A stretch of 64,000 nt of DNA from assembly GCA_963704825.1 (NCBI GenBank), contig CAVPHV010000017.1, forward strand, positions 359,325-423,324, read 5' to 3'. Position 1 is the stretch's first letter, and every line of letters begins with the position of its first letter. Source of the DNA: an uncultured Acidimicrobiia bacterium (lineage in GTDB: Bacteria; Actinomycetota; Acidimicrobiia; Spongiisociales; UBA5794). The position numbers and the translations under genes were made by a program. Below the pieces are notes generated by a model that saw only the letters and a list, made by a program, of their open reading frames with translations, did not search any database and was not told the origin of the DNA. Below are positions 8,396-24,588 of this stretch, one piece after another.

Positions 8396-8569
8396 CCGGG
8401 CCGTTCAGCTCCGGGCAGGCAAAGCGTCTGGTACGCAGGTTCAACCGCTGACCGGGCCGCTCAGCTCCGGGCAGGCAAAGCGTCTGGTACGCAGGTTCAA
8501 CCGCTGACCGGGCCGCTCAGCTCCGGGCAGGCAAAGCGTCTGGTACGCAGGTTCAACCGCTGACCGGGT
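8338..8569. repeat. MIRU-like VNTR: about 4.1 tandem direct copies of a 56-bp unit (consensus ~GACCGGGCCGCTCAGCTCCGGGCAGGCAAAGCGTCTGGTACGCAGGTTCAACCGCT), each carrying an in-frame TGA.
   Basis: Copy starts at about 8338, 8394, 8450, 8506 and 8562 (period 56). Copy 1 is slightly diverged and forms the 3' end plus stop of the Grx-like CDS. Every further copy re-encodes LTGPLSSGQAKRLVRRFNR* in a shifted frame (56 = 2 mod 3). No spacers, so not CRISPR. Confidence 0.85.
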
Positions 8570-8610
8570 GCTGATTCTGGCGCCGCGACCCCCCACTATC
8601 CTCCAAAAAC

Positions 8611-9237
8611 GTGAAGACGAGCATCCCGAAAGCCACCATTGCCAGGCTGCCGCTCTACCTGCGGTGCCTCAGCGACCTCGCTGCGGCACAGACGACCTGC
8701 TCGTCCGATCAGTTGGCGACCAATGCCGGAGTCAACTCCGCCCAGGTGCGCAAAGACCTGTCCTATTTGGACGTCAGCGGGGTGCGCGGGGTGGGCTACT
8801 CCGTGGTCGAACTGCGCCACCAGTTGTCTACCGCCCTTGGCTTGAACCAGGGGTATGCGGTGGCGATCGTCGGCGCCGGCAATCTGGGGACGGCGTTGAG
8901 CAATTACGGTGGGTTCGCCGCGTGGGGCTTCACTGTGGCAGGGGTGTTCGACATCGATGCGGCAAAGGTCGGCACCGAGGTTGGCGGCCACCTGGTGCGT
9001 CCGCTGGTCGACTTGGAGGAGATCGTGCAGCAGCGCGACATCGCCATCGGCATCGTCGCCACGCCGGCAAATGCCGCTCAGCAGGTCGCCGACAGGTTCA
9101 TCGCCTCCGGGCTGCGGTCAATCCTCAACTTTGCGCCGACGGTGCTCCAGGTGCCCGACAACGTGTCGGTACGACGAGTGGATCTCTCCACCGAATTGCA
9201 GATTCTCACGTTCCATCTTCAGCAGGACGCCGGCTGA
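8611..9237 (+). CDS. rex: Redox-sensing transcriptional repressor Rex.
   Basis: N-terminus IPKATIARLPLYLRCL (winged HTH); Rossmann GAGNLGTAL. Typical 208-aa size. Confidence 0.9.
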   Translation: MKTSIPKATIARLPLYLRCLSDLAAAQTTCSSDQLATNAGVNSAQVRKDLSYLDVSGVRGVGYSVVELRHQLSTALGLNQGYAVAIVGAGNLGTALSNYGGFAAWGFTVAGVFDIDAAKVGTEVGGHLVRPLVDLEEIVQQRDIAIGIVATPANAAQQVADRFIASGLRSILNFAPTVLQVPDNVSVRRVDLSTELQILTFHLQQDAG

Positions 9238-9284
9238 CCGTCGGCTTTGGAGGCGGTGCCGCGTTGATCAGATGGGGCGCCCGT

Positions 9285-9794
9285 TCAGGCGGACTCTTCC
9301 GCCGCGTTCTCATAGCGGTCGAGTGCCGCGACGAACATCAGGAACAGGATCAGTGAGCCGAGGGTGAGCGCAATCGCAGGCACCCGAACCTGGAAGGCGT
9401 TCAGCCCTTCAACATCGGAGGGCCGCAGCCCGCGCGGGGCGTAGACCACGAACAGGGCGCTGCCGATGACCAGCCAACCAAACGTGGCGGCGCCGGTGAC
9501 GAGGAAGGCGAGGCGGGCGCCCAGGTTGGTGTAGAGCAGTAGGTAGCCGCTGCCGATGAACGCGATGATCGAGGTCACGGTGATGAGTACCCCTCGGGTC
9601 GCAACCGAGAAGGCCGTTACCCGGCCGGTGTCGGGATCGACCTGCTTGAAGATGGCGTCGTAGATGTCCCCGAACAGGCCCCGCACCGGCGGAATGAACG
9701 AAAGGATGGCGACGATGATGGCAAAGACGCCAAGCCACTCGAGGGCAGTCAGCCCTGCTTCATCACTATGGAATCGCCGGCGCAGGTTGCTCAC
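9285..9794 (-). CDS. Small integral membrane protein (169 aa, about 4 TM), last gene of the bc-complex operon.
   Basis: Its ATG overlaps the stop of the upstream cytochrome c gene (ATGA). The N-terminal GLTALEWLG is superficially Flp/TadE-prepilin-like (G-x-T-A-x-E-[YF]), probably coincidental. Four hydrophobic helices. Confidence 0.5.
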   Translation of the reverse strand: MSNLRRRFHSDEAGLTALEWLGVFAIIVAILSFIPPVRGLFGDIYDAIFKQVDPDTGRVTAFSVATRGVLITVTSIIAFIGSGYLLLYTNLGARLAFLVTGAATFGWLVIGSALFVVYAPRGLRPSDVEGLNAFQVRVPAIALTLGSLILFLMFVAALDRYENAAEESA

Positions 9795-11464
9795 ATCGAC
9801 CTTTCATACTGGACGATGAGTCGGATGTCTTCCTCAGACAGGATCTGCCCAAATGCGGGCATCCAGCCATTGCCGATCCCGTTGACGCCGTAGTTCCTGG
9901 CCAGCTCGGAACCCTCGATGATGAACTTGACCTGGTCGTCCGCATTCGGGAACTGGCTGACGGAGGCACCACCGACAAGCGATGGCCCCCAGGCCCCGCT
10001 GCCGGCTTCCTGCTCGAAGGCAACCCCGGCGCTGTAGCCGGCGGTGTGACAGCGGGCGCAGTAGCCGTTGAACAGACCGACGGCCCGCTCGCTGTCGGCC
10101 ACGCTGAGCCCGGTGTTGGCAGCCACCTCGTCGAAGTCGACCGCCCACAGTTGCTCTGCCTCGGCGTCACGTAGGAAGTTGAGGCCCTCGACTGCAGTGT
10201 TCAGGAAGACCTCTTGGCGCTCGGTCACCACGCCAAGGGTGAGATGTGCGGTGCTGAGGTCATTCATCCAAGCGTCGAGCGAGTCGATGTCGGCAATGGC
10301 CACTCCCGCAGCGTCGGTCATCGTGAAAGCCTTGCTCGGGTCGAGCATGAGGTCGTACAGGTGTGGATACAAGCCGACGTTGGGCACGATCGTCACCTCA
10401 TACGTGATGTTCCCGTCGTCGTCCTCGACCGGGGACACCACCCGCACCACCACGGTGTCCGCGGTGATGGCGGCCAGCGAGTTCGGATCCCGCTCACCGT
10501 CCACGGACCCGGCGATGAGGCGTTCGGCTTCGTCGCTGATTCCGTCGCGGTCGGTGTCGAGCCCGGCCTGGTTGCAGGATGACCCGACCATGGCGGCGGA
10601 CTCATCGGTGCAGGTCCCGTCGCCGGCCAGGATGAAAGCGATGTTGGTCGGTGTGGCGCCTGCCTGCTCCAGTGTCTCGAACTTTGCCGGGGCGTCATTC
10701 AAGTCGGCGATGACTGCTTGTTCGGCGGCAATACGGGCGGCGACTGCCTCGGCGCCGCCGGCGATGCGGGCCAGGGCGGCGTCCACCGTCGGTTGGATCT
10801 TGGCGAGGGCATCGCCCTGGGAGATTTGGAACGACTCGATGAAGGCCATGACCTGGTCGACTTCCTGGGTGCTCATGGCGCCGCCGCCTTCGAGACCGTT
10901 GGCCGGCATCGGGGTGCCGGCGCGCCCGTAGACGACCCAGAACTCGACCTCTTCTTCGCTATAGCGGTAGAAGACATCGTTGAGCGAGGGAACGGCCCAC
11001 GAGGTCTCCAACCCGCTGCGTTCCTCCGTGTAGGCCGCGCCGCCACCGCCCCCGTCGGCGCCGTGGCAGTTGGTGCACACGAAGTTGGTGTACCACCTGT
11101 GGCCCTCTTCGATGTAGAGCTCGCTTTGGGCCTCCGCCGCCTCAGCCTGGCGGTCTGACTCGATGATGTAGTAGACCGGGATGAGGAGAGCAAGAACGCC
11201 GGCTGCAACTACGGCCGACGTCAGGATCTTGGTTAGCCGTCTGTTCTCCAGCTCATCGTCGGAGAGGTACGGCTGAAGGTTGGGCGGGGTTTCGTCGGCC
11301 TTCTTCTTGCCGACCCGCCTGCTGTTGATGATGAGGTAGCCCACCCAGATCAGGAAGGCGCCGATGACCACGATGAGCACAAACGCGCCGAGCCCGACGT
11401 TGGCAGGACCGGCCGGTGTGCTGTCGGTCTCCGCCGTCGCGAGGATGATCGATGCCGCCGTCAC
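9791..11464 (-). CDS. Membrane-anchored dihaem cytochrome c (about 557 aa) with a roughly 300-aa insert between the two haem domains.
   Basis: Two CxxCH motifs (CTNCHGADG and CARCHTAGYS). N-terminal TM VGLGAFVLIVVIGAFLIWVGYLII. The insert contains DTDRDGISDEAE (DxDxDG Ca-binding-like). Start assigned to GTG 11464, overlapping the Rieske stop (GTGA); the 620-aa ORF start at 11653 lies deep inside the Rieske gene. Confidence 0.75.
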   Translation of the reverse strand: MTAASIILATAETDSTPAGPANVGLGAFVLIVVIGAFLIWVGYLIINSRRVGKKKADETPPNLQPYLSDDELENRRLTKILTSAVVAAGVLALLIPVYYIIESDRQAEAAEAQSELYIEEGHRWYTNFVCTNCHGADGGGGGAAYTEERSGLETSWAVPSLNDVFYRYSEEEVEFWVVYGRAGTPMPANGLEGGGAMSTQEVDQVMAFIESFQISQGDALAKIQPTVDAALARIAGGAEAVAARIAAEQAVIADLNDAPAKFETLEQAGATPTNIAFILAGDGTCTDESAAMVGSSCNQAGLDTDRDGISDEAERLIAGSVDGERDPNSLAAITADTVVVRVVSPVEDDDGNITYEVTIVPNVGLYPHLYDLMLDPSKAFTMTDAAGVAIADIDSLDAWMNDLSTAHLTLGVVTERQEVFLNTAVEGLNFLRDAEAEQLWAVDFDEVAANTGLSVADSERAVGLFNGYCARCHTAGYSAGVAFEQEAGSGAWGPSLVGGASVSQFPNADDQVKFIIEGSELARNYGVNGIGNGWMPAFGQILSEEDIRLIVQYERSM

Positions 11465-12360
11465 ACGCACGATGGTCCCTGCGGATAGGCAATGGTCTTG
11501 ATGGTGGCCCGGGAGGTCTCGAGGACCTGGCCCGTCTGAACGACGAGGTCGCCGTTGTCGTTGATCTCGACGGCGAAGCGGTCCATGTTGCGCGGCGCCG
11601 GTCCATCCACGTACTCGCCGTGGAAGTTGTACTTGGAGCCGTGACAGGGGCATTCAAAACCCTGCGACGACAGACACTCGGGGACCCGGCAGCCGAGGTG
11701 GACACAGCGCTGCCAGAGTGCCATCAGGCCCGGCTCGCTGCCGTCGGTGGCGACCACGGGAAGACCAGCGAATGAGCTGGCATCCTGGACATTGGAGTCG
11801 AACGGAACGATCCACGATTGGGCCGCGGCCACGAAGACCGGCTGGACGGAGCCGTCGGCTTGGATCATCTGGAGCTGCAGCTCGGTGAAGTTGCCTGCGT
11901 TGATTGGTGAGCCAAAGCCACCCTTCAGCTTCGGCCACAGGAAGGCCAGGAAGCTCAGCGATAGTCCTCCGAGGAAGGCACCGACGAACAGACCGAACAA
12001 TGCTCGGTTCAGGAACTTGCGGCGGGTGACGCCGTACTCGGCGGACGTGATCGGGATCCTCTCCAGTGCCGGATCTGGCGGCGGGGCCGCCGGCCCAGTA
12101 GCCGTCTCAGACTCGGCCGTTGTGGCGGTGTCGTCTTCAGCGGTTGCCGTCAACGTGGCAACCGCGGTTCCGCCTCCGTCGGCAGCAGACGCCTGTCGTC
12201 GGCGGTCGGAGCGAACCGCACGCTTGTCGAGCTTGCCGGTTGCGGCCGAGGTGATGGGTTCGGCGGACGGGCCGCGGCGCCATGCCACAGTGAACACCGC
12301 GAGGGCCGCCAGCCCTGCGGCGGCGACAATGCCAATGACGAAGATGGTGGTTGCGCTCAT
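11461..12360 (-). CDS. Rieske [2Fe-2S] iron-sulfur subunit of a cytochrome bc-type complex (Tat signal).
   Basis: CVHLGCRV...CPCHGSKY Rieske boxes. Twin-arginine RRKFLNRALFGLFVG. Start taken at the internal ATG 12360 (MSATTIFVIG...), which overlaps the upstream stop (ATGA). Confidence 0.85.
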   Translation of the reverse strand: MSATTIFVIGIVAAAGLAALAVFTVAWRRGPSAEPITSAATGKLDKRAVRSDRRRQASAADGGGTAVATLTATAEDDTATTAESETATGPAAPPPDPALERIPITSAEYGVTRRKFLNRALFGLFVGAFLGGLSLSFLAFLWPKLKGGFGSPINAGNFTELQLQMIQADGSVQPVFVAAAQSWIVPFDSNVQDASSFAGLPVVATDGSEPGLMALWQRCVHLGCRVPECLSSQGFECPCHGSKYNFHGEYVDGPAPRNMDRFAVEINDNGDLVVQTGQVLETSRATIKTIAYPQGPSCV

Positions 12361-13577
12361 CAGAAATCGAAGAAGACGCCGTCGACCCAGGGGAACGTGA
12401 AGTTGAATCCCGGTCCTCGGAAGAACGACCCGTAGATGGTCAGCACTGCGGCTGCGAACAGGAAGAAGCTGAAGATCATGATGGCCAGCTTTCGGTCGGA
12501 CGGCCGCACCGATGGGTTGCGGTCGACGTAGGGAATCATGGCGAGCCCAATGGCACCGAAGGTCGGGACGATGATCCCGGCGACCTGAGGGTCGAAGTAA
12601 GAGAGCAGTTCTTGGAGTCCGAGGAAGTACCACGGCGCCTTGGATGGGTTGGGCTGTTCGTTGAAGTTGGCGAACTCGAGTAACGGGGCGTCAACAAACA
12701 CCGAGAAGACGAACAATGCCGCCAGCACCACCATGAGAGCGACAAACTCGATGGCGAGCAGATGCGGCCAGACGCTCACCTTGTCATGCGGTTCGGACTT
12801 GACCTGTTGGATCGCCCCGGCTTTGACGACGGTCAGCAAACGTTGGGTGCGGACGCCCTCTGGAATCGCCTGTGCGGCGGCAGGTGCGGCGGCAGCCGCC
12901 GCACCACCGGCGGCGGGGACGGCCGCGGGTGGCGGGGCAGGTGCGCCGCCTGCCATCGTGGGAACGGCGGTGCCGTCCTTCCTCGCTCTGGCCACCATCG
13001 CCCGTTGCAGGAGAGGTACCGGTACTCCGTAGGTTGCGGACTCGGCATCGAGGTCGCGCACCGGCCCGGTGGGTGCTGCCAATGGAGCGGGGGCGGCTGC
13101 GGCGGGTTGAGCAGCGGGCGGCGCTTCGGCCACGGCCGCCTCTCCTGCGGGCGTTGCACCCATGAGTTCAGCCATGACCTCATCGACCGAGCGACCTTCC
13201 CTCTTGGCCCGCGCCTCGGCGGATCGTCGGACGAGGTGTTCGGGGAGACCCGGCCCGCCGCCGGTCGGTGCCGCGGCGGCAGGTGCAGCCGGTTCGGGGG
13301 CGGCGGCCGGTGGAGCAGCCCCGGTCAGCTCGGCCATCACTTCCTCAACGGAGCGGCCCTCCTTCTTGGCGCGAGCCTCGGCGGTCCGGCGGAGGAGGGC
13401 TTCGGGGATCTGTGCGGCCTCGCCACTTGCGGCGGCAGGTGCAGCAGGTTCGGGTGCGGCGGGCGGTGGAGCGGCTTCACCCTTCATCTCTGCCAGCACT
13501 TCGTCGACGCTCCGCCCCTCGGCCTTGGCACGGGCCTCGGCGGATCGCCTCAGAATGCTTTCGGGTATCTCTGCCAC
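12360..13577 (-). CDS. Cytochrome b6f subunit-IV-like / cytochrome b C-terminal-domain protein with a long N-terminal Ala/Pro-rich extension carrying 3.5 copies of a roughly 25-aa motif.
   Basis: C-terminal about 140 aa have 3 TM helices and the P(E)WY motif (APWYFLGLQELL). N-terminal repeats IPESILRRSAEARAKAEGRSVDEVLAEMKG / IPEALLRRTAEARAKKEGRSVEEVMAELTG / LPEHLVRRSAEARAKREGRSVDEVMAELMG are separated by AP-rich linkers. Confidence 0.75.
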   Translation of the reverse strand: MAEIPESILRRSAEARAKAEGRSVDEVLAEMKGEAAPPPAAPEPAAPAAASGEAAQIPEALLRRTAEARAKKEGRSVEEVMAELTGAAPPAAAPEPAAPAAAAPTGGGPGLPEHLVRRSAEARAKREGRSVDEVMAELMGATPAGEAAVAEAPPAAQPAAAAPAPLAAPTGPVRDLDAESATYGVPVPLLQRAMVARARKDGTAVPTMAGGAPAPPPAAVPAAGGAAAAAAPAAAQAIPEGVRTQRLLTVVKAGAIQQVKSEPHDKVSVWPHLLAIEFVALMVVLAALFVFSVFVDAPLLEFANFNEQPNPSKAPWYFLGLQELLSYFDPQVAGIIVPTFGAIGLAMIPYVDRNPSVRPSDRKLAIMIFSFFLFAAAVLTIYGSFFRGPGFNFTFPWVDGVFFDF

Positions 13578-13586: not shown

Positions 13587-14369
13587 TTAGAGCGGACCCG
13601 AGATGCCGCCGTCTTTGCGCACTCGCCAGAAGTGCACGGCCATGAACACCACGATCACGAACGGGAAGAACAAGACGTGGAGGACGTACCACCGCAGCAG
13701 CGTGTCCGGCGTGATCTGGACGCCGCCGATCAACGCAAAGGACACTTGATCTCCCAACACCGGCGCATAGGCCCCCATGTTGGTGCCGACGGTCACCGCC
13801 CATACAGCCAATTGGTCCCACGGCAGCAGGTAGCCGGTGAACGAGAGGAGCAGGGTGAGGAGAAGGAGGATGATGCCGACCACCCAGTTGAATTCGCGGG
13901 GCGGCTTGTAGGCGCCGTGGTAGAAGACCCGAGCCATGTGGAGGAACACGGTCAGCACCATCAGGTGGGCACCCCATCGGTGCATGTTGCGTACCAACTG
14001 ACCAAAGGCCACGTCGGTCGAAAGCGCCTGGATGTCCTGGAAGGCGGCCGGTGACGTCGGCCGGTAGTAGAACATCAGGAAGATGCCGGTGATCGTGAGC
14101 AGGATGAACAGGAAGAACGAGAGTCCGCCGAGACAGAGGGTGTAGGAGAGCCGGACGCCGTGGCGCTTCACCTTCACCGGGTGGAGGTGGTAGAGCACGT
14201 TGTTCATGATCACATAGGAGCGGTTGCGGGGGCTGTCCGAGTAGCCAGCGCGCAGCGGTGAGCCGGGGCGGAAGATGCTCGACCACACCTGGCTGGATTG
14301 GATGCTCTCACCGACTTGGACCAGGCGCTCTTTCAGCCCGACCTTGCCGTCTCCGTTCCCGTTCGCCAC
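13587..14369 (-). CDS. Cytochrome b6-type (short, 260 aa) cytochrome b N-terminal domain protein.
   Basis: Four TM helices with bis-haem His pairs (MHRWGAHLMVLTVFLHM and RWYVLHVLFFPFVIVVFMAVHFWRVRKDGGISGP), typical of PetB/QcrB (Bacillus-type). Confidence 0.85.
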   Translation of the reverse strand: MANGNGDGKVGLKERLVQVGESIQSSQVWSSIFRPGSPLRAGYSDSPRNRSYVIMNNVLYHLHPVKVKRHGVRLSYTLCLGGLSFFLFILLTITGIFLMFYYRPTSPAAFQDIQALSTDVAFGQLVRNMHRWGAHLMVLTVFLHMARVFYHGAYKPPREFNWVVGIILLLLTLLLSFTGYLLPWDQLAVWAVTVGTNMGAYAPVLGDQVSFALIGGVQITPDTLLRWYVLHVLFFPFVIVVFMAVHFWRVRKDGGISGPL

Positions 14370-14433
14370 CCGACCTCCTCAAAGGCGTCGATAGTCTCAC
14401 CCACGGCAAGCGCCGGTCAAAATCGACCGTCGC

Positions 14434-14880
14434 TCACCAACGTACTCCGTATGCATACCCGTTCTTGAAGTCGCGAGCTCCTGTGTCGTACTCCCACGGC
14501 GCCAGACCGTGCTCATCTGCTTCCGCCGACAGCGAGCCGGCGAATTTGCCGAGCGAGATCACGCCGGTGGGGCAGCGGTCGATGCAGAGTGCACATCTGG
14601 TGCACTCATCCTCGTCGACCACGAAAAACCCCTTGTTCTCGGCATTTGACCCGGGGTCATCAACGTTGACCCCCTCGGCGATGGCGTCAACCGACAAGTA
14701 GTGGATGCACTTCCAGGGACAGATGTCGACACATCCCTCACACAGAATGCACTCGGCCTGGTTGATGTGAAGGAACTGCTTCGGCTTGACTGCTGCGATC
14801 AGGTACGCCCCGTCGACGGCGGCGAGTTGATAGTCGTCGCGCATCGGCGGGGTTTCGAACCAGACGTCGCTCTTGGCCAT
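14434..14880 (-). CDS. 2x[4Fe-4S] ferredoxin-like protein encoded inside the bc-complex operon.
   Basis: Two CxxCxxCxxxCP motifs (CILCEGCVDICP and CTRCALCIDRCP). Start at internal ATG 14880 (MAKSDVWF...). There is a 5-nt gap to the upstream gene. Confidence 0.75.
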   Translation of the reverse strand: MAKSDVWFETPPMRDDYQLAAVDGAYLIAAVKPKQFLHINQAECILCEGCVDICPWKCIHYLSVDAIAEGVNVDDPGSNAENKGFFVVDEDECTRCALCIDRCPTGVISLGKFAGSLSAEADEHGLAPWEYDTGARDFKNGYAYGVRW

Positions 14881-14885
14881 CTTCG

Positions 14886-15404
14886 CTACCTCTCGACCTT
14901 GGTCATGGGCCGACCATACGTCGAGACCGGTTGCGGCGGCGGACCGGATGCGATCTTCTTCTGCTGGTCCTGCCACTTGATCATCACGAAGGCGATGGCG
15001 CCGGTGATGGCGACGGAGTAGCCGGCCACGATCATGTCCTTGATGACTGCGTAGCTGATGGAAACGTCGTTGTTGAGCACAAGCACAGGGGGAATCGTGA
15101 GGAAGTTCTTCTGGGGCGTCCACTCCCATACCGCCTGAGTGAGCGTGAGCCATTGGTTGGGGATGACGCCGTAGAGGATGACCATCAGGCCGGTGAAGAG
15201 TGCGGCACCGAGCGAGGCGCGGGCCCAGGTCATCTTCCGCTTGTAGAGGAAGGCGAGTGTGGCGCTCGCCATGGCGAGGAGCACGCCGCCCAGGGCGACG
15301 AGTTGACCGAACAGTACGAAGCCCCACCCACGGGGGATTGCGGGGTAGATCTCCCGGCCGAGGTCGTCGAACTCGTTGAGACCGGTGAAGTGCGCAATGA
15401 GCAC
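14886..15404 (-). CDS. Integral membrane protein (172 aa, about 4 TM), first gene of the bc-complex operon; GTG start.
   Basis: Hydrophobic helices (WGFVLFGQLVALGGVLLAMASATLAF..., LGAALFTGLMVILYGVI...). No recognisable family. Confidence 0.5.
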   Translation of the reverse strand: MLIAHFTGLNEFDDLGREIYPAIPRGWGFVLFGQLVALGGVLLAMASATLAFLYKRKMTWARASLGAALFTGLMVILYGVIPNQWLTLTQAVWEWTPQKNFLTIPPVLVLNNDVSISYAVIKDMIVAGYSVAITGAIAFVMIKWQDQQKKIASGPPPQPVSTYGRPMTKVER

Positions 15405-15630
15405 TCCGATGACCAGCGTGACCAGGCCAACGAAGATGCCGGCGATGCCTGCCCTGAAGTAGTTTCGATGCTCCAGTTCGCCCTCCTGGTCCGTGCGGTG
15501 CGCACCTTACCGCGCCGAGATCGCCCCGGCCGCCGTCATTCTATGCAGACCGATGCCACTCTCGAAGCTCGACAGAGTTTTTCCCTTCCTGTCTGATAGC
15601 TAGGCTGCGCCCCGCCCGACGGGACGACCA

Positions 15631-17607
15631 ATGGAGGACGCGCGAGCGGTGGCCGCAGAGACGAAGACCGACGCTTCCGAGCCCGTACAGTCTGTGGCGG
15701 TATCTGGGTACTCCGGAGCAGCCCGCGCCCACATCTTTGTAGCGCTCGGCTCGCTCTTTGCCGGCGTCATGCTTGCCCTGGTTGCCGTGACGCAACTGGT
15801 CCTTCCCGATGTGTTCTCCGGCGTCGGCATGCTGAGCTACGGCAGGGTGCTTCCCGCTGCGACCAACGTTCTCGTCTACGGCTGGCTGACGGTTGGATTG
15901 ATCGGCGCCGCCTACTACATCGTTTCCGAGGTCGCCGGAGTCAAACTCCAGTTCGAGCCGCTCGCCCGAGTGGGCGCTCTGTTGCTCGCCATCGGTGTCA
16001 TCGCCGGCGCCGGCGGGATCGCACTCGGTTGGAGTGAGGGACGCACCTACGTCGAGATGCCGCTGTGGGCGGACTTCTTCGTTCTCCTCGGCTTGCTGAT
16101 CGCGGTGCGGGTCATCACCGCAACCATCTCCGATCGCACCAACCGCGAGATGGGTCCGGCCCTGTGGTTCCTCGGCGCCGCACCACTGTGGCTGTTGTTT
16201 GCCTTCGTGGTCGGCAACATCCCCGGCCTGGTCGGGATGAACAGCGTCATCCAGACCGCCTTCTACCGCGGCGCCCTTGCCGGGCTCTGGTTGTCGGTAG
16301 CCGGCTTCGGGATCGTGTACTACCTCATACCGAAGGTGACCGGCCGCGGACCGGCCAAGCCGACCAAGCTCGCGGTCATGGGTTTCTGGTCGCTCGGGTT
16401 CGTCTGGGCGTTTGCCGGAGCCGCCAACCTCACGTACACCCCGGCCCCCGGCTGGCTGCAGACCATCGGTGTCGTGTTCTCGATCGCGCTCTTCCTTCCG
16501 CTCGCCATGCTGTTCACAGATCTGGTTGGTCTGATGCGTGGCCGCTGGGGTCGGGCACGCGACCGGATGACGATGCGCTTCATCGGGGCGGGAGCAATCC
16601 TGTTGCTGGTGACGGCGGTCATCAACCTGCTCCAGGCGCTGCGGGCATCGAACGCCGTTGTCGGCTACACCATCTGGGGTGCCGCCTTCGAGTACGCCAC
16701 GTTCTACGGGGCATTCACGCTGTGGCTGGCCGCCTTCATCTACGCCGCGGCCGGTGATCTGCTCGGAGGTGTCTTCAAGCCTTCGGTGGCGAGAGGGCAC
16801 TACCGCCTCACGACGTTCTCGATCACCGTCATCCTGGCGACGACGCTGATCGGAGGCCTGCAAACCGGGTTCTTGTGGATCGCCGACGCCAACAGTCCCG
16901 AAAGTACCGTGGCTTACGGGCCAGGGTGGAAGGCCGTCGTTGAATCGCTTCAGCCGCACTACTGGATCTTGTTCCTGGCGATGGTTCTGTTTGTCTTCGC
17001 TCAGGTCCGCTTTGTCGCCGGCGGGGTCGCCGCGGCCATCAACGCGAGACCGGCGGAGCCGGAGACGGCCGACCACGACGACCTCGAAGGACCCGACCTC
17101 GCGGATGCCGGCTGGATGGCGACCAACGGAGTGTCCGCCCGCCACCTGTGGCTCGGGTCGACTGGTCTCCTTGTGCTGGCGGCCCTGCTGGTGGTGCTGC
17201 TGCCCTCGCTCGAGGCTTCTCACGTGGACGGGACCATCCTCTCGGACCGCTCCCGCAACTACCGCTCCGATGACTTCTTGGAGCGCGGCCGCGGGTTGTA
17301 CCTGGCCGAGGGGTGCTGGTACTGCCACACCCAGGACGTCCGGCCCATCGTCACGGACGTGGAATTGGGTGCGGTCAGCCAGCCCGGCGATTACGCAAAT
17401 GAGGTTCCGGCCTTGCTCGGCACGGCTCGGGTGGGACCCGACCTGATGCACGCCGCGACCCGGGAGGAAGCCGGTTCGAGCGCGTTCCTTTTTGATCACT
17501 TGACCGACCCGCGGGTCGACCGCCCCTGGTCGATCATGCCGAGTTATGACTACCTGTCGGAGAACGACCGGTTGGCCCTCGCCGCCTACATCACGAGTCT
17601 GGACTGA
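15631..17607 (+). CDS. cbb3-type oxidase subunit I (CcoN)-like 12-TM domain lacking all canonical haem/CuB histidine ligands, fused to a CcoO/FixO-like monohaem cytochrome c domain.
   Basis: Block-wise similarity to CcoN as I remember it: [34 protein letters not shown] vs [53 protein letters not shown] vs [33 protein letters not shown] vs GPHHLHYT. The C-terminus [22 protein letters not shown]...VGPDL...IMPSYDYL matches the CcoO haem-c site. Confidence 0.75.
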   Translation: [658 protein letters not shown]

Positions 17608-17610
17608 GCG

Positions 17611-18483
17611 ATGGAAGATCAGATCCAAAGAGTTGCCGAACAAACCGGGGTCCCTAGTGGCCTGTTACAACGCGCCGCCGCCGCCCGCGCCACCGCGGCA
17701 GGCACCTCGACCGAGGTCATCGTGGCGAAGTGGGCCGGCGAGGACGCGGCAGCTCCGGCAGCAGCCACGGCCGCTCCCGCTCCGGCCGCGCCGCCGGTCG
17801 CTCCGGCCCCGGCGCAGCCGCCGGCAGACAGTTCGACGCCGGCAGTTGAGGTGCTTGAACCGGTCGCCGCGGCTCCCAGCACGGTCGGAGCGGATGCGTC
17901 GGAACCTGAACCGGAGCCCGAGCCTGCAGCCGCAGGCGGGTTCCCCAAGTGGCTGGCCGCCGCCTTCATTGTGATCCCTGCCATTGCGCTGTTCTATGCC
18001 CTGCTCTTCCCGAATGGTCCTGACTGCGGTTCGGCCGGTCAGTTGGCCGTCGATCCCGGCACCGGTGTCGCCGTGAACTGTGACGGCAGCGCGTTCGGGT
18101 CCGAGGAGTTCAGCTACTTCGGCACCGGCGAGGTCATCTACGCCGAACGGTGTGCCGCGTGCCATGGTGCCAACGGCGCCGGTGGCGCCAACTTTCCCGC
18201 TCTGGCCGGTGGGGCCGTGGTTGCGACCTTTGGCTCCTGCACCGATCACGTTGCGTGGGTTGGGTTGGGAACGGCCGGATTCCAGGAAGCCGGCATCGCC
18301 ACCTACGGCGACAGTGAGAAACCCGTGGGCGGCGCCGGGGTTCCCATGCCGGGCTTTGAGGGTGTCATCTCCGAGCAAGATCTGATTGCGGTCGCCCTCT
18401 ACGAGCGAGTCGCCTTCGGCGGCGAGGATCTTGCGGTTGCTGAGGAACTCTGCGTCGGCCAAGAGGCCGTGGCTTCTCCGTAG
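17611..18483 (+). CDS. Membrane-anchored monohaem cytochrome c (CcoP-like) with an N-terminal motif related to the subunit-IV repeats.
   Basis: CAACHGANGAGG (CxxCH) with flanking FPALAGG as in CcoP. Central TM FPKWLAAAFIVIPAIALFYALLF. The N-terminal LLQRAAAARATAAGTSTEVIVAKWAGE resembles LLRRSAEARAKAEGRSVDEVLAEMKGE. ATG is 4 nt after the upstream stop. Confidence 0.7.
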   Translation: MEDQIQRVAEQTGVPSGLLQRAAAARATAAGTSTEVIVAKWAGEDAAAPAAATAAPAPAAPPVAPAPAQPPADSSTPAVEVLEPVAAAPSTVGADASEPEPEPEPAAAGGFPKWLAAAFIVIPAIALFYALLFPNGPDCGSAGQLAVDPGTGVAVNCDGSAFGSEEFSYFGTGEVIYAERCAACHGANGAGGANFPALAGGAVVATFGSCTDHVAWVGLGTAGFQEAGIATYGDSEKPVGGAGVPMPGFEGVISEQDLIAVALYERVAFGGEDLAVAEELCVGQEAVASP

Positions 18484-18511
18484 TCTCGGCGCGCTCGGTA
18501 CGCTCCCTGCC

Positions 18512-19774
18512 ATGACTTCACCGGATGTACTGGTTGTCGGCGGCGGCCCCGCCGGGGCCTCTGCCGCCTATTGGATGGCGCAGCGTGGGGTGTCCGTCCT
18601 GGTCGTCGAGAAGAAGACCTACCCGCGTGAGAAGACCTGCGGTGACGGGCTGACCCCGCGGGCGGTCAAGCAACTGATCGACATGGGGTTCGATTTCGAC
18701 ATTCCCGAACTCCATCGGATCGACGGGCTGCGCGCCTACGCCGGTGACCTGATGCTGGAGCTGCCCTGGCCGGAGCGCACCACCTATCCATCGTGGGGCG
18801 CCGTCATCCGCCGTGCCGACCTCGATGGGCGGGTCGCCATGCTCGCCGAAAAGCAGGGGGCGGTGATTCAGCAGGGGACCGAGGCCACGGCCATTGTCGA
18901 CGACGGCAGACTGGTCGCGGTCGACCTGAAGGTCGGCAACGGCTCGGGAGAGTCAGAGATCACCCGGGTCACGCCCCGGCTGGTTGTCATCGCCGATGGG
19001 TCGCTGTCGCGTTTCGGGCGAAAGCTCGGCACGGCGCGACGTCGCGACTACCCATACGGTCTTGCCGTGCGCGCCTACTACTCGAGCCCCAACTCGGGCG
19101 ATCGATTCCTCGAGAGCCAGCTCAACATCACCGACCGCAACGGCCGTCACATGCCGGGGTACGGCTGGATCTTCCCGCTCGGCGACGGCACCATCAACAT
19201 CGGCGCCGGAGCCCTTTCCACCTTCAAGGGGTGGAAAGACCTCAATACGACCGAACTCCTCGAGGCTTATGTATCCGGCCTGCCATCGCGTTGGGAGGTC
19301 ACGGCGGCGTCGCTGCTCACCGAGCCGACCGGGGGCAAGCTGCCGATGGCCTTCTCGATCGGACCCAAGGTCGGTCCGAATTGGGTTGTGGTCGGAGACG
19401 CGTCAGGGGCGGTCAATCCCTTCAACGGCGAAGGAATCGACTACGCCTACGAGACGGGACGCCTGGCCGCCGGCTATGTCGCCGACGCTCTGGCGACGGG
19501 CGACAGTGGACCCCTCTACGGCTACGCCCAAGCGATCGAGCAGGAATACGGCGATTACCACAAGGTCGCCAGGATCTTTGCGCTGGCGATCGGGAACCCG
19601 GCCGTGATCAAGACCCTCACCCAGGTGGGAATGCGTTCCCGTCCACTGATGGAGTGGGTACTGAAGGTCATGGCCAACCTGCTCGAACCGGAGGAGCGCG
19701 GGATGACCGAGCGGGTCTACGGAGCCATTGAACGGGTCGTCAAGATCGCCCCCGAGCCCAACCGATCTCGGTAA
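18512..19774 (+). CDS. FAD-dependent geranylgeranyl reductase-family oxidoreductase (candidate menaquinone/isoprenoid side-chain reductase, MenJ-like).
   Basis: Start at internal ATG 18512 (MTSPDVLVVGGGPAGASAAYWMAQRGVSVLVVEKK: GxGxxG FAD fold). ...TCGDGL... and GDASGAVNPFNGEGI are typical of the GGR family. Confidence 0.8.
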   Translation: MTSPDVLVVGGGPAGASAAYWMAQRGVSVLVVEKKTYPREKTCGDGLTPRAVKQLIDMGFDFDIPELHRIDGLRAYAGDLMLELPWPERTTYPSWGAVIRRADLDGRVAMLAEKQGAVIQQGTEATAIVDDGRLVAVDLKVGNGSGESEITRVTPRLVVIADGSLSRFGRKLGTARRRDYPYGLAVRAYYSSPNSGDRFLESQLNITDRNGRHMPGYGWIFPLGDGTINIGAGALSTFKGWKDLNTTELLEAYVSGLPSRWEVTAASLLTEPTGGKLPMAFSIGPKVGPNWVVVGDASGAVNPFNGEGIDYAYETGRLAAGYVADALATGDSGPLYGYAQAIEQEYGDYHKVARIFALAIGNPAVIKTLTQVGMRSRPLMEWVLKVMANLLEPEERGMTERVYGAIERVVKIAPEPNRSR

Positions 19775-19803
19775 CCGGTGCCTCATCCCGTTAGGCTTGG
19801 GGG

Positions 19804-22800
19804 GTGACGACGTCGGGGGATTTCAGCGAAGTCGATCTTGACCAGTTGGTCGAGCAGATCGTCGCTGCCGATGAGGTGGCGAGTGATGTGCTGGCGGCGT
19901 TCGCCCGGGCCTATCTGAGCCGAGTCCCGCAGGAGCGTCTCGCCGCCTGGCCGCCGGACGAGCTTGGGGCTCACGTTCGCCACCTCTTTGAATTCGCCGC
20001 CGACCGCCGCGGCGACGACGTCGAGGTTCGTGTCTTCAACCCAACCGTCGAGACCGCCGGCTATGCGCTGAGCGGAGCCGTCGTCGAGGTGGCGGCGCCG
20101 GACATGGCGTTCCTGGTGGACTCGATCACCAACGAGATCCAGTCGCACGGTTTCAACGTCGAACGTGTCGTCCATCCCGTGGTCGGCACCGGACGCGACG
20201 CCACCGGGCGCTTGGTCGAGATCAGGCCGGCCCGCACCTCGATGTTGCGCGAGTCGATCCAGCACTACGAGCTGAGCCGGCCGATCGGGGAGCACGACGC
20301 TGCGGAATTGGAGACAGGCGTGCGGCGGGTGTTGCTCGACGTCGCTCGCGCCGTTGACGACTTCGAGCCGATGCAGGGCGCCATCTACCGCATGATCAAG
20401 GTGACTCGGGACGGTGCGGCCCGCTATTCGAAAGAGGAGATCGATGAGGATGTTGCCTTTCTCGAATGGCTGCTCGACCTCAACTTCGTGTTCCTGGGCT
20501 ACCGCGAGTATCGGATCGCACCGGGGGTGACCGAACCCGAGTTGTCGGTGGTTCCGGGTTCCGGTCTCGGCATCCTGCGCGACGACACCGAGTCGGGTTT
20601 TGCATCGCCGGTTCCGATGTCTGAGGTACGGCCCTCGCTGCGGGCCCGGTACGAGAGCGGCGATCTGCTGGTGATCAGCAAGACGAACTCGCCATCCCGG
20701 GTCCACCGCAATGCGAAGATGGACTACGTCGGCGTCCGGCACGTTGGACCCGACGGGACCGTGATCGGCGAAGCGCGGATGGTCGGCCTGTTCACCTCGA
20801 AGGCGTATATGGCGGCGGCCGATTCGATCCCGCTGCTGCACCGCAAGCTCACCCAGATCATCGAGGCGGAGGACTTGATCGAGGGCTCGCACTCCTACAA
20901 GGAGGTCGTCGGGCTCTTCAACAGCTTCCCCAAGGACGAATTGTTCACCACACCGACGCCCGACATTCGGCGCAGCATTGTCGGTCTGCTCCAACTTCAA
21001 GAGCAGCGCCACGTCCGGCTCTTTGTACGGCGCGATCTGCTGCGGCGCAGCGCGTCGGTGCTGGTGGTGATGCCACGAGACAGGTTCAACGCCGCCCTGC
21101 GTCACCGGCTCCAGGCCCTGTTGCTTGAGCGGTTCGGCGGGACCTCCATCGACTACCGATTGTCGCTCGGCGACGCCGATACGGCCCGGCTGCACTTCAC
21201 GGTATGGGTTGCCGGAGGAGAGGTTCCCGACGTGTCAATCGAGGTTCTCGAGGCAGAGGTCGTTGCCGAGGCACAGACCTGGGAGGAGCGCCTCGCCGGA
21301 GAGGTCGATGCCCGCTACGGCTCCGAACGCGGTCGGGCGTTGCTCGACGAGTGGGCCGGCAAGTTTCCCGATCACTACCGGGCATCCATCCCGTTGTCGA
21401 TTGCAGCCGGTGACCTCGGCAAACTCGACGAACTGGTAGCCGGCTCAGGGAGGGCGGTTGTCGGACTTCAGAACGAACCTGGGCCGGGCGAGCAGCTCAC
21501 CCGGCTCGCCGTGTATCGCTCAGACGGCAAGTTGGAACTCTCTGCCATCATGCCGACCCTCGAGGCGCTCGGGCTTCGGGTGGTCGAAGAAGTGCCCACG
21601 CGGCTCCGCGGCGGGGACGGCGGGCTCTTCATCCACGACTTCGGGGTGCTCGACCTCGATGGAGCCATGCTCGACCTCGACGATGTCGCCGACCGGGTGG
21701 CCGACACTGTGGTTGCGGTTCTCGCGGGTCAAGCCGAATCCGATTCTCTCAACCGGTTGATCATCAGCGCCGGACTCGACCATCGCCAAGTGACGATCCT
21801 GCGGGCCTATCGCACCTACTGGCGGCGGGTCAGTCCAGGATTCACGGTTGAGTACATCAACGACGCCTTTGCCGCCCATCCCGAGATCGCCGCGGATCTG
21901 GTCGAGTTGTTCGCCACTCGCTTCGACCCCGGGCTCGGCGAGGCAGAAGAGGCTCCTACCCTGGCTCGGATCCTTTTCGAGTTGGACCAGGTCTCCAGCC
22001 TCGACGAGGACCGCATTCTGCGCGGCTTTCTGGGACTCGTGCTCGCCACCAAGCGGACCAATGTGTACCTGCCCGGCGCCGACAGCCTCAGCTTCAAGTT
22101 CCGTTCGAGCGAGGTGCCGGCCATGCCGGAGCCGGCTCCGCTGTTCGAGATCTTCGTTTACGCCGGCGAGGTCGAAGGCATCCACCTGCGGGGCGGACGG
22201 GTGGCTCGTGGTGGTATCCGCTGGTCGACCCGCAAAGAGGACTACCGCACAGAGGTGCTCGGGCTGATGAAGGCGCAGATGACCAAGAACGCCGTCATCG
22301 TTCCCACCGGATCAAAGGGCGGCTTTGTGCTGCGTCGGCCGCCGGCGGATCCGGCCGAACTGCGCGACGCGGTGCTCGCCGGCTACATGATTTTCATCCG
22401 CGGGTTGCTGGACGTCACCGACAACCTGGTGGAAGGGACGGCGGTGCATCCCGCCGGAGTTCGAATCCATGATGACGGCGATCCTTACTTGGTGGTTGCG
22501 GCCGACAAGGGCACCGCCACGTTCTCCGACACCGCTAACGAGATCGCCGCGGCCTACGACTTCTGGCTGGGCGATGCGTTCGCGTCCGGCGGTTCGGCCG
22601 GATACGACCACAAGGCCCTCGGCATCACGGCTCGGGGCGCATGGGAGTCGGTCAAGTGGCACTTCCGCGAACTGGGTATCGACATCATGCACGAGCCCTT
22701 CACCGTGGTCGGCATCGGCGACATGTCGGGTGATGTCTTTGGAAACGGGATGCTGTTGTCACCACACATCCGGCTCGTCGCCGCCTTCGATCACCGCCAC

Positions 22801-24588
22801 ATCTTCATCGACCCCGATCCCGATCCGGCGACGTCCTTCGCCGAACGCCGCCGGATGTTCGCTCTGCAAAGGTCGAGTTGGGAGGACTACGACGACTCGC
22901 TGATCTCGGCCGGGGGCGGGGTGTTCTCTCGCACCGCAAAACGGATCGACCTGACCGATGAGATACGGCTGGCTCTCGGCACCAACGCCCACCAGCTGAC
23001 ACCCGACGAGCTGATCCAGGCCATTCTGAGAGCACCGATTGACTTGCTGTGGAACGGCGGCATCGGAACGTACGTCAAGGCAGCCGCCGAGACCAGCGAG
23101 CAGGTCGGAGACCGCGTCAACGATGCCTTGCGCGTCAACGGCTTCGAACTGCGTTGCAGGGTGATCGGAGAAGGCGGCAACCTCGGGCTGACTCAGCCGG
23201 GTCGCATCGAGTTCGCTCGCGGCGGCGGTCGGGTCAACACCGACTTCATCGACAACTCCGGCGGGGTCCATTGTTCGGACCGCGAGGTGAATCTGAAGAT
23301 CCTGCTGGGTTTGGCCGAGGTGCGCGGCGAGCTGGATCGCGGGGGACGCGACGCCCTCGTCACCGACGTCGTTGACGATGTGGTCTCCGCCATCGTCTAC
23401 GACAATTTCCTCCAGGCGCAGATCATGGCCCAGGAGGTCCACGGCTCGGCTCAATCCCTCGAGGCGTACGAGGATCTGATGTCGCTGTTGGAGAGCGAGG
23501 GAGCACTCGATCGTCGCATTGAGCGGTTGCCCACCACCGAAGAGATGAGCGAGCGGGCTCGCCTCGGCGAAGGAATGCCCGCCCCGGAACTTGCCGTGCT
23601 GCTCGCCTATTCGAAGCGCAGTTTGCGCGACTGGCTGCTCGACTCGGAGTTGCCGGATTGGGACGACTTCAGCGATGAAGCGCGTGGGTACTTCCCTGCC
23701 GAGGTTGTGCGCCGATTTGGTGATCTGATCCCCGAGCATCCACTGCGTCGTGAGCTGGTGGCGACCATCGTGGCCAACCGGGTCGTCAACTCGGAAGGGG
23801 CGACGTTCGTGACCCGGCTCATGGCCGAGACCGGGGCAGCCCCCGAGCAGGTGGTGCGGGCATATCACATCGCCAGGGGCGTCACCGACGCCCCCAATCG
23901 CTGGCGAGCCGTCGAGTCGCTGGTCGGCCGGGTCCCTGCCGAGGTCGAGCGTGATTTGTTGGAGGGAATCGACGGATTGGTCGAGAACATTGCTCGGTGG
24001 TACCTGACTAATCCGTCTGCCGAGTTCATGAGCGAGGTGACGGCGACCGCCAAACCGGCATTCGACGAGATGGCAGAGATCATTGCCGAGATCGGGCCGG
24101 CCCAGTGGCGGGCCGATCGTGACGCCGCAGTAGTCGTCTGGGCCGAGCAAGGCGTTCCCGCCGAGGTCGCCATCCGCCACGTCTACCAAGAGGAGTTGAT
24201 CCACGCTCCCGATGTGATCGTGGTGGCGCAGCGCACCGGGCGTTCGGTGCGCGACGTCGCCCAACTGTTCCTGCTCATCGGTCCGGTGTTCGAGATCGAC
24301 TGGCTCGAGGAGCAGGTCGCCGCGTTGCCCGCTGCCGGCCGCTGGCACCGCCGGGCCATCAAGACCGTCGAAGACGATCTTGTCCTGCTGCGGCGCCAAC
24401 TCGCCGAGCACATCCTGGCGGTCTCGGACGACGCCGTTCCACACGCCGCGCTCGACCACTACCTCGTTGAGCACACCCACGAACTCGGCCGCCTCACACG
24501 CTTCATGCGCTCTCTCGCCATCGATGGCGTGGACGACGTGGCCTCGGTGATCGTCGCCATCCGCCAAATCCGATCCCTGGCCACCTGA
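19804..24588 (+). CDS. gdh: NAD-specific glutamate dehydrogenase, large (about 180 kDa) bacterial type (Bac_GDH, PF05088).
   Basis: 1594 aa. Catalytic core motifs PTGSKGGFVL, VVAADKGTATFSD, GGSAGYDHKALGITARGAWESV, GDMSGDVFGNGML and NSGGVHCSDREVNLKIL. Confidence 0.9.
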   Translation: MTTSGDFSEVDLDQLVEQIVAADEVASDVLAAFARAYLSRVPQERLAAWPPDELGAHVRHLFEFAADRRGDDVEVRVFNPTVETAGYALSGAVVEVAAPDMAFLVDSITNEIQSHGFNVERVVHPVVGTGRDATGRLVEIRPARTSMLRESIQHYELSRPIGEHDAAELETGVRRVLLDVARAVDDFEPMQGAIYRMIKVTRDGAARYSKEEIDEDVAFLEWLLDLNFVFLGYREYRIAPGVTEPELSVVPGSGLGILRDDTESGFASPVPMSEVRPSLRARYESGDLLVISKTNSPSRVHRNAKMDYVGVRHVGPDGTVIGEARMVGLFTSKAYMAAADSIPLLHRKLTQIIEAEDLIEGSHSYKEVVGLFNSFPKDELFTTPTPDIRRSIVGLLQLQEQRHVRLFVRRDLLRRSASVLVVMPRDRFNAALRHRLQALLLERFGGTSIDYRLSLGDADTARLHFTVWVAGGEVPDVSIEVLEAEVVAEAQTWEERLAGEVDARYGSERGRALLDEWAGKFPDHYRASIPLSIAAGDLGKLDELVAGSGRAVVGLQNEPGPGEQLTRLAVYRSDGKLELSAIMPTLEALGLRVVEEVPTRLRGGDGGLFIHDFGVLDLDGAMLDLDDVADRVADTVVAVLAGQAESDSLNRLIISAGLDHRQVTILRAYRTYWRRVSPGFTVEYINDAFAAHPEIAADLVELFATRFDPGLGEAEEAPTLARILFELDQVSSLDEDRILRGFLGLVLATKRTNVYLPGADSLSFKFRSSEVPAMPEPAPLFEIFVYAGEVEGIHLRGGRVARGGIRWSTRKEDYRTEVLGLMKAQMTKNAVIVPTGSKGGFVLRRPPADPAELRDAVLAGYMIFIRGLLDVTDNLVEGTAVHPAGVRIHDDGDPYLVVAADKGTATFSDTANEIAAAYDFWLGDAFASGGSAGYDHKALGITARGAWESVKWHFRELGIDIMHEPFTVVGIGDMSGDVFGNGMLLSPHIRLVAAFDHRHIFIDPDPDPATSFAERRRMFALQRSSWEDYDDSLISAGGGVFSRTAKRIDLTDEIRLALGTNAHQLTPDELIQAILRAPIDLLWNGGIGTYVKAAAETSEQVGDRVNDALRVNGFELRCRVIGEGGNLGLTQPGRIEFARGGGRVNTDFIDNSGGVHCSDREVNLKILLGLAEVRGELDRGGRDALVTDVVDDVVSAIVYDNFLQAQIMAQEVHGSAQSLEAYEDLMSLLESEGALDRRIERLPTTEEMSERARLGEGMPAPELAVLLAYSKRSLRDWLLDSELPDWDDFSDEARGYFPAEVVRRFGDLIPEHPLRRELVATIVANRVVNSEGATFVTRLMAETGAAPEQVVRAYHIARGVTDAPNRWRAVESLVGRVPAEVERDLLEGIDGLVENIARWYLTNPSAEFMSEVTATAKPAFDEMAEIIAEIGPAQWRADRDAAVVVWAEQGVPAEVAIRHVYQEELIHAPDVIVVAQRTGRSVRDVAQLFLLIGPVFEIDWLEEQVAALPAAGRWHRRAIKTVEDDLVLLRRQLAEHILAVSDDAVPHAALDHYLVEHTHELGRLTRFMRSLAIDGVDDVASVIVAIRQIRSLAT

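Follow-up and report, generated by a model that had tools for sequence, protein, structure and literature searches.

Within a 64,000-nucleotide stretch of DNA from an uncultured Acidimicrobiia bacterium (contig CAVPHV010000017.1, positions 359,325 to 423,324; hereafter the window, with a GC content of ∼65%), the fused gene at 15631-17607 on the forward strand, here called ccoN*O, codes for the body of a cbb3-type terminal oxidase in which every metal-ligand histidine has been replaced, joined through a linker to a CcoO-like transmembrane (TM) anchor with a monohaem cytochrome c. The 12-TM fold of CcoN, the C-family subunit I, is kept in the structure model, and ccoN*O is most related to the cbb3 oxidase, yet it works least like one. 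Since its fold and its Pfam matches are those of the oxidase family and every active-site feature looked for is absent, we do not class it as a cbb3 oxidase. The explanation that we favour, giving it somewhat better than an even chance, is that ccoN*O is a pseudo-oxidase, a haem-c-only remnant of a b6c-cbb3 supermodule that would have been kept as a scaffold or as an electron relay.

This makes ccoN*O a candidate respiratory pseudoenzyme, in which the core of a terminal oxidase, predicted to be devoid of redox cofactors, is nevertheless under strong selection and sits in a conserved cluster in every Acidimicrobiia or Actinomycetota genome compared. It raises the question of which non-chemical roles the body of an oxidase can have, such as scaffolding, the positioning of cytochromes c or the assembly of supercomplexes, and it is of interest to bioenergetics as well as to the annotation of Actinomycetota metagenome-assembled genomes (MAGs).

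Fold and former active site of the CcoN-like domain

The gene is a single open reading frame from ATG to stop, coding for 658 amino acids, and its frame is unbroken, with a third-position GC content (GC3) of 0.78-0.90 over ∼15720-17600. Residue mapping, family alignment columns, the structure model and substitution rates delimit a CcoN-like domain with 12 predicted helices (residues 30-470; 15718-17040). It is followed by a cytoplasmic linker (residues 471-502; 17041-17136), which joins TM12 to the CcoO-like anchor helix and is marked by low model confidence and low conservation (0.41, with dN/dS values of up to 0.43). The CcoO-like part (residues 503-658; 17137-17607), recognized by Pfam FixO and by CcoO chains of the PDB, consists of the TM anchor at residues 503-526 and a cytochrome c domain.

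In profile searches, both halves of the protein score above the Pfam cut-offs and below those of the NCBIfam families. Pfam COX1 (PF00115) matches residues 31-450 (E 1.6e-35; 123.3 bits for a gathering cut-off of 34.8) and FixO (PF02433) matches residues 550-646 (E 5.6e-20; 72.2 bits for a cut-off of 29.6), the latter over the haem-binding half of the profile only (positions 49-144 of 219). The best NCBIfam match is PRK14485, the CcoNO fusion, which scores 199.8 bits against a cut-off of 1080; the CcoN family TIGR00780 scores 117.7 bits against 583.15, and the CcoO family TIGR00781 reaches 65.6 bits against 200.65 on the CcoO-like part. When the PDB sequences were searched with phmmer, cbb3 oxidase chains were matched exclusively: CcoN chains (9g6b_A, 3mk7_A, 6xkw_n and 8smr_E) by the N-terminal part, and CcoO chains, including 3mk7_B and 6xkw_o, by residues 511-646.

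An AlphaFold2 model built from an alignment of 27 family sequences (pLDDT 83.3, pTM 0.89) contains 12 helices, the anchor helix 13 at residues 503-526 and a small helical domain, with a linker that is disordered between residues 476 and 494 (pLDDT <50). The best Foldseek match of this model is 3mk7_A, the CcoN subunit of P. stutzeri (target TM-score 0.89, rmsd 2.6 Å, 21% identity), followed by nitric oxide reductases (3o0r_B and 4xyd_A) and then by A- and B-family oxidases.

To locate the ligand positions, the phmmer alignment with 3mk7_A (residues 43-478 against chain residues 26-468, E 4.7e-20) was mapped residue by residue, with a numbering that closes correctly at both ends. All six ligand histidines and the cross-linked tyrosine are replaced. 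The two haem b ligands H60 and H347 correspond to A77 and Y355, the haem b3 ligand H345 to F353, the CuB triad H207, H257 and H258 to G214, A265 and N266, and the cross-linking Y251 to W259. Only three histidines are left in residues 1-470 (H34, H390 and H443), none of them at a ligand position. The sequence-only reading of this gene had listed the six histidine substitutions by eye, and its alignment was correct, because the parsed alignment returns the motifs that it had quoted (e.g. PAATN). We can dismiss an offset alignment that hides conserved histidines. The residues found at the ligand positions are the same in the HMMER alignment, in three MAFFT alignments and in the fold match of the structure model, so that the histidines are truly substituted.

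The replacements extend beyond the ligands. Among the residues that we take to form the K-analogue channel of P. stutzeri CcoN and to surround its haem b3, including E323, presumably hydrogen-bonded to the haem b3 ligand, four of the six mapped K-channel and haem-b3 hydrogen-bond residues are changed (S240A, H243G, Y317L and E323I). By contrast with these losses, ccoN*O shares with the cbb3 oxidase of P. stutzeri (3MK7/5DJQ) the subunit I fold, an anchored CcoO-type monohaem cytochrome c followed by a CcoP-like gene, and the periplasmic-side motif YGR together with E125 (E142), W341 (W349) and Y223 (Y230); T215 (S222) counts as kept as well. A further difference from the CcoN-CcoO-CcoP enzyme is that the CcoP-like protein has one haem site instead of two.

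As far as the sequence can tell, ccoN*O is unable to bind haem b, haem b3 or CuB in the way a cbb3 oxidase does, because the ligand histidines, Y251 and channel residues are gone and the family scores lie far below their cut-offs. The ligand set of the nitric oxide reductase subunit NorB (six histidines and a glutamate for FeB) is likewise absent, the histidines being missing. The protein itself should therefore neither reduce O2 or NO nor pump protons, and cytochrome c:O2 activity with proton pumping is predicted to be lost. The haem c site of the CcoO-like part is intact, as had been proposed from the sequence: it comprises CWYCH at residues 562-566 (17314-17328) and IMPSYD at residues 635-640 with the distal Met636 (17536-17538), behind the TM anchor, and it is recognized by FixO as well as by its conservation across the family described below.

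A conserved family without ligand histidines

A word-indexed search returned 40 proteins with the architecture of ccoN*O, at 32-100% identity, and those with a taxonomic name come from Acidimicrobiia or Actinomycetota MAGs. In the 57 family members aligned, the six ligand columns are entirely free of histidine, whereas Cys562, Cys565 and His566 never vary and Met636 is conserved in 95%. The same search also found canonical relatives, both fused and unfused, and these retain all six histidines. Fused CcoNO proteins of the PRK14485 type (e.g. in Nitrospirota, Ca. Manganitrophus and Gammaproteobacteria MAGs) resemble ccoN*O in having the N part before the O part and in the EGCxxCH(T/S)Q and MP(S/A) motifs.

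The same division was seen when loci were scanned with one genome per species. The scan returned 80 loci, of which 17, all from Acidimicrobiia or Actinomycetota, lack every ligand histidine; the other 63 (Acidobacteriota, Nitrospirota, Bacteroidota, Bacillota, Chloroflexota, Proteobacteria and more) keep the six histidines, and almost all of them the tyrosine. In the 65 histidine-complete relatives nearest to the family, the six histidines are present in 65/65 and the tyrosine, as aligned, in 61/65. The loss of the ligands is thus a property shared with relatives, as the sequence-only reading had suggested should be looked for.

We also ran an exhaustive profile search of 1.84 billion representative sequences (clusters at 50% identity), which gave 572 matches at E ≤ 1e-30, and classified the best 150 of them. 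In this set, 68 clusters have none of the six histidines (33 fused N-O proteins and 35 with the N part only), 35 have one to five (24 fused, 11 N only) and 24 have all six (5 fused, 19 N only); the remaining 23 are fragments or are gapped at a ligand column. The named members of the 68 histidine-free clusters are Acidimicrobiia or Actinomycetota. In a rough neighbour-joining tree, ccoN*O falls inside one large clade without ligand histidines, and further separate lineages show a patchy loss. The features of this clade, all found in ccoN*O, are the CcoN fold, the complete absence of ligand histidines, an arginine at 213, 265 or 266 with Asp/Glu354, a CcoO part with CxxCH and, usually, an adjoining b6c operon.

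Loss of ligands therefore seems, from these sequences, to be frequent in the C family, and this part of sequence space appears uncharted. A separate and diverse group of fused CcoNO-like proteins of 650-1000 amino acids (P0117-P0215, e.g. P0150, P0162, P0163 and P0131) shows patchy ligand loss; in P0150 the three haem histidines remain, and Q, R and D occupy the CuB positions. The rough tree also has unfused proteins with zero to two of the histidines, scattered among canonical CcoN proteins.

To determine whether the gene is decaying, dN/dS values were calculated against two close relatives. They are 0.134 and 0.123 for the CcoN-like domain, 0.101 and 0.089 for the CcoO-like domain, and 0.135-0.138 for the entire gene. 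The neighbouring genes give 0.114 and 0.096 (glutamate dehydrogenase), 0.073 and 0.074 (MenJ-like) and 0.048 (cytochrome b6). The CcoN-like domain is under purifying selection, with a dN/dS similar to that of neighbouring housekeeping genes. A decaying pseudogene or an assembly artefact would account for the disappearance of all the catalytic residues. However, the frame of 658 codons is intact with the GC3 of coding DNA, the dN/dS values lie between 0.12 and 0.14, and intact homologues down to 32% identity occur in independent assemblies with an invariant CxxCH and a conserved synteny. We regard this explanation as refuted, its probability being close to nil, and the earlier description of ccoN*O as an intact, operon-embedded gene stands.

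A second alternative is that ccoN*O is still an O2 or NO reductase that uses non-histidine or relocated ligands. The fold and the CcoO/CcoP-type partners have been kept, and public sources name members of the family "cbb3-type cytochrome c oxidase subunit I/II". However, the former ligand columns hold varied residues (A/G/S/F, G/A/S/T, A/R/S/T/I, N/D/R/S and F/L/V/Y/N among others), and no conserved Met, Tyr, Lys or Cys stands in for the histidines. The two moderately conserved histidines (H34 in 79% and H390 in 85% of the members) lie off the ligand positions, the equivalents of the cross-linked tyrosine and of E323 are lost, and the scores for CcoN and for CcoNO are a fraction of their cut-offs. 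We consider this possibility very improbable.

The residues at the former binuclear site are not random. Position 354, between the two former histidines of TM10, is Asp or Glu in nearly all of the 57 members, and every one of them has an arginine either at 213, next to the former H207, or at 265/266, the former H257/H258, with the site varying by subclade. In ccoN*O itself these are Arg213 and Glu354, at the former binuclear site. We read this pair as a putative buried ion pair that substitutes for the metal centre.

We found no published description of a CcoN without ligands in full-text literature searches, whose coverage leaves out most subscription journals, so that this absence is no proof; the result agrees with the opinion expressed in the earlier reading. 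The "cbb3 oxidase" genes annotated in Acidimicrobiia probably do not reduce oxygen, and reconstructions of Acidimicrobiia MAGs in which a high-affinity oxidase or microaerobic respiration is deduced from ccoN*O are probably wrong. Using the six ligand columns as an annotation check would flag such mislabelled cases.

A shared cluster with a b6c-type operon

The gene ccoN*O is immediately followed, 3 nt after its stop codon, by a gene for a CcoP-like membrane-anchored monohaem cytochrome c of 290 amino acids (17611-18483, forward strand), and the two are probably co-transcribed. The CcoP-like protein begins with a cytoplasmic N-terminal part, which leads through an Ala/Pro-rich linker into a TM helix at residues 115-133, and it has a sole CxxCH at residue 181, in place of the two that characterize dihaem CcoP. 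Its score is 27.9 for Pfam Cytochrome_CBB3 (cut-off 27) and 18.3 for TIGR00782 (cut-off 179.95). A CcoP-like gene lies downstream of ccoN*O in 15 of the 17 Acidimicrobiia/Actinomycetota loci, and the other two contigs end near ccoN*O. It is followed, after 29 nt, by a gene for a MenJ-like geranylgeranyl (menaquinone) reductase (18512-19774, forward strand), a recurrent neighbour that is also a gene call in locus L081; it matches NCBIfam MenJ with an E-value of 5.6e-87 but under the cut-off, and TIGR02032 over the cut-off. A large NAD-glutamate dehydrogenase gene and a full nuo operon (24660-39653) come next.

On the other side, a divergent intergenic region of 226 bp (15405-15630) separates ccoN*O from a b6c-type operon on the reverse strand. 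The first gene of this operon (14886-15404) codes for a protein of 172 amino acids with three predicted TM helices and is kept in 17/17 loci. Then come a 2x[4Fe-4S] ferredoxin-like protein of 148 amino acids with two CxxCxxCxxxCP motifs and no TM helix (14434-14880; a gene call in L081), a cytochrome b of the b6 type, corresponding to the N-terminal half (13587-14369; 260 amino acids; Pfam Cytochrome_B, E 3.6e-48), a PetD or subunit IV-like protein of 405 amino acids with an N-terminal extension of 240 residues (12360-13577; Pfam Cytochrom_B_C), and a Rieske [2Fe-2S] protein of 299 amino acids (11461-12360; Pfam Rieske, CxH and CxxH motifs, and a gene call). The operon continues with a membrane-anchored dihaem cytochrome c of 559 amino acids, with CxxCH at residues 132 and 471 and two TM helices (9791-11470), and ends with a conserved protein of 169 amino acids with ∼4 predicted TM helices (9285-9794). 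Neither of the two small membrane proteins has a significant match to a Pfam family. A gene for a Rex-type redox-sensing repressor lies beyond the operon on the forward strand (8611-9237; Pfam Put_DNA-bind_N and CoA_binding).

The order rex, b6c operon with ferredoxin, ccoN*O, CcoP-like gene, MenJ-like gene and nuo recurs in 17/17 Acidimicrobiia/Actinomycetota loci, as far as the contigs extend, and rex is present beside the b6c operon wherever the flanking sequence is long enough. The synteny holds while the CcoN*O proteins are only 33-43% identical; the cytochromes b6 are 78-90% identical in the loci with a full-length match. The gene for the soluble ferredoxin-like protein and the two genes for small membrane proteins, which are additions to a Rieske/cytochrome b6 operon, are conserved in the 17 loci; it is unusual for a b6-type complex to have an iron-sulfur subunit on its cytoplasmic side. 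In locus L084, from an Acidimicrobiia MAG, the cluster contains an unfused ligand-free CcoN gene, with CcoO-like and CcoP-like genes standing apart behind it, and because such unfused versions share the cluster, the N-O fusion appears to be secondary in the Acidimicrobiia lineage.

The association with b6c genes is not limited to the ligand-free proteins. Homologues of Rieske, cytochrome b6 and PetD lie within 10 kb of 35/65 histidine-complete relatives from other phyla, and in 17/65 a homologue of the ferredoxin gene is there as well. These canonical relatives, fused or unfused and mainly from Acidobacteriota, resemble ccoN*O in often having the adjoining operon; they differ in keeping the six histidines, and their identity to ccoN*O is 23-32%. 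Since histidine-complete relatives share the b6c neighbourhood, the simplest reading is that of an old b6c-cbb3 supermodule, in which the oxidase chemistry was lost in the Acidimicrobiia lineage. If so, the family offers a natural experiment in the evolution of such supermodules.

A sequence motif links the two halves of the cluster. The N-terminal extension of the PetD-like protein (residues 1-240) contains four copies of a motif of ∼30 residues, IPExxLRRSAEARAKxEGRSVxEVhAEh, with Ala/Pro linkers between the copies, and residues 14-44 of the CcoP-like protein form one more copy. We built a hidden Markov model (HMM) from the five copies and searched the six-frame translations of 16 sequences, i.e. 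the window and 15 related loci. It matched exclusively PetD-like proteins (one to four copies), CcoP-like proteins (one copy, rarely two) and unfused CcoO-like proteins (one copy), with further sites at 9362-10228 of L084 and 11439-12236 of L048. The tails that bear the motif are all predicted to be cytoplasmic, and the motif has no significant match to a Pfam family. That a b6c subunit and the dead oxidase's cytochrome c subunits alone share it speaks for a partner in common or for mutual tethering.

Taken together, these data are compatible with the following scheme for the pseudo-oxidase. A b6c-cbb3 respiratory supermodule would have been the ancestor. In the lineage of ccoN*O, O2 reduction by CcoN would have been lost together with haem b, haem b3 and CuB, and the cbb3-shaped body would have been retained because it continues to carry the two c-type haems and to set their place at the outer membrane surface. 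The unit formed by CcoN*O and the CcoP-like protein (CcoP*) may dock to the b6c complex, possibly via the cytoplasmic motif shared with PetD, and electrons would pass from the dihaem cytochrome c to CcoN*O-CcoP* and on to a distinct terminal oxidase whose genes lie elsewhere. The Arg-Asp/Glu pair would form a buried salt bridge and so take over from the metal centre the task of joining helices VI/VII to helix X. The idea of a supercomplex scaffold or electron-transfer subunit, one of the options put forward in the sequence-only reading, gains support from the conserved pairing with the b6c operon and from the shared motif. Comparable cases are CydB and CydA' of the cytochrome bd oxidases and, in mitochondrial bc1, the core proteins that resemble peptidases but are inactive; these are homologues of catalytic or cofactor-binding subunits that have lost their ligands and stay under selection within a respiratory complex. 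There, the complex also contains an active subunit, whereas the operon of ccoN*O has no active haem-copper subunit, and therefore the entire oxidase module appears to be catalytically dead.

Several points weigh against this scheme. The cofactor content, the partners and the electron acceptor are all deduced, and we infer likewise the physical association with the b6c complex and the direction of electron flow. A search for the signature motifs of A-family oxidases revealed no terminal oxidase, either in the window or less than 10 kb from any of the related loci, so that the proposed acceptor is undocumented here. Four of the six residues that replace the ligands are small (A, G, A and N); hence it is not obvious that side chains fill the pockets, and a lipid or a quinone could sit there. 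Conservation in the CcoN-like domain is higher on the outer (P) side, in the outer loops and the outer-face third of the helices, than towards the cytoplasm (0.67 versus 0.56, p = 4e-7), and it equals that of the cytochrome c domain there, but this asymmetry is weak evidence because canonical CcoN likely has the same bias. Finally, in a distant lineage (L085) a ligand-free CcoN/CcoO pair is found, and the 8 kb read to either side of it contain no b6c operon.

This last locus bears on another possibility, namely that CcoN*O-CcoP* is a standalone membrane-anchored cytochrome c carrier or electron store and that its adjacency to the b6c genes is merely an inherited gene order. The pair of L085 lies beside multihaem cytochromes, a MenJ-like gene and nuo, and in L003 the b6c operon and ccoN*O are ∼8.7 kb apart. 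On the other hand, the motif is specific to the PetD-like and CcoP/CcoO-like proteins in all loci with enough flank, and the divergent adjacency persists among relatives that are just 33-43% identical. We hold a standalone carrier to be rather unlikely.

The cofactor-less 12-TM domain could also have been repurposed as an active membrane module, either with a quinol site that feeds the haem c of the CcoO part or with a conformationally driven path for ions or protons around the buried Arg-Asp/Glu pair. Polytopic subunits of the NrfD/PsrC/ActC type, e.g. in Alternative Complex III, have no redox cofactors and lie under periplasmic subunits with haem c or iron-sulfur clusters. The placement of the CcoN-like domain under a haem c subunit is similar, but the folds are unrelated and ccoN*O shows no evidence of a quinone site. 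An active module would fit the fact that even deeply diverged members keep Arg (213/265/266) and Asp/Glu354 in the membrane core, the conservation of the middle thirds of the helices, which is as high as that of the periplasmic loops (0.687 versus 0.692), the pocket that the small residues at the former ligand positions could leave, and the recurrence of the MenJ-like and nuo genes as neighbours, even in L085. However, the adjoining b6c complex already supplies quinol oxidation, no quinone-site motif could be recognized, the canonical proton-path residues S240, H243, Y317 and E323 are gone, and the simplest view of one buried ion pair is that it stands in structurally for the metal centre. We therefore judge an active module to be improbable. 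Its boldest form, in which the CcoN body would be a new cofactor-less energy-converting subunit (with menaquinol in a former haem pocket feeding the c-haems of CcoO and CcoP directly, or with the Arg-Asp/Glu pair serving conformationally coupled ion translocation in a b6c-linked supercomplex) and the ligand-depleted homologues would be large unrecognized families, seems to us a slightly longer shot still.

Regulatory signals and other features of the neighbourhood

A search for the Streptomyces-type Rex operator TTGTGAA-N4-TTCACAA with up to three mismatches gave no match in the divergent intergenic region or near rex, and the sole match in the window, at 57170, is at chance level. A scan of 15300-20000 for promoters and terminators likewise produced hits at chance level only, and nothing was detected in Rfam and tRNA scans of the window. 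The overlap of an open reading frame at 14434-15327 with that at 14886-15404 was considered as a possible frameshifted gene and this was rejected, as both the relatives and the public gene calls have one gene each for the membrane protein of 172 and the ferredoxin of 148 amino acids.

The dihaem cytochrome c of the b6c operon contains an insert of ∼250 residues (residues ∼215-460) that parts its two haem domains. The insert includes the Asp-rich sequence LDTDRDGISDEAE, whose resemblance to a bacterial thrombospondin type 3 calcium-binding repeat is weak and short of significance (Pfam E 0.084). The NAD-glutamate dehydrogenase downstream of the MenJ-like gene (19804-24588; 1594 amino acids) is one open reading frame in the window and in L082. 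In L081, an ENA contig with an identical CcoN*O, the public gene calls divide it into three genes (14174-18960), probably because of a difference in assembly or gene calling.

The locus L085 is a forest-soil contig of the ENA, in which the unfused ligand-free CcoN gene and a short CcoO-like gene (8001-12036) adjoin the MenJ-like gene and nuo. Upstream of them are genes for an FHA/pyridine-nucleotide oxidoreductase, a Fer4/cNMP-binding protein, a multihaem cytochrome and CcmE. Farther along the window, a second nuo-like cluster starts at 57364-61640 on the forward strand, with homologues of NuoA, NuoC, NuoD, NuoH and NuoI. NuoD is directly followed by NuoH in this cluster, and the NADH-oxidizing module (NuoE, NuoF and NuoG) therefore appears to be missing from it.

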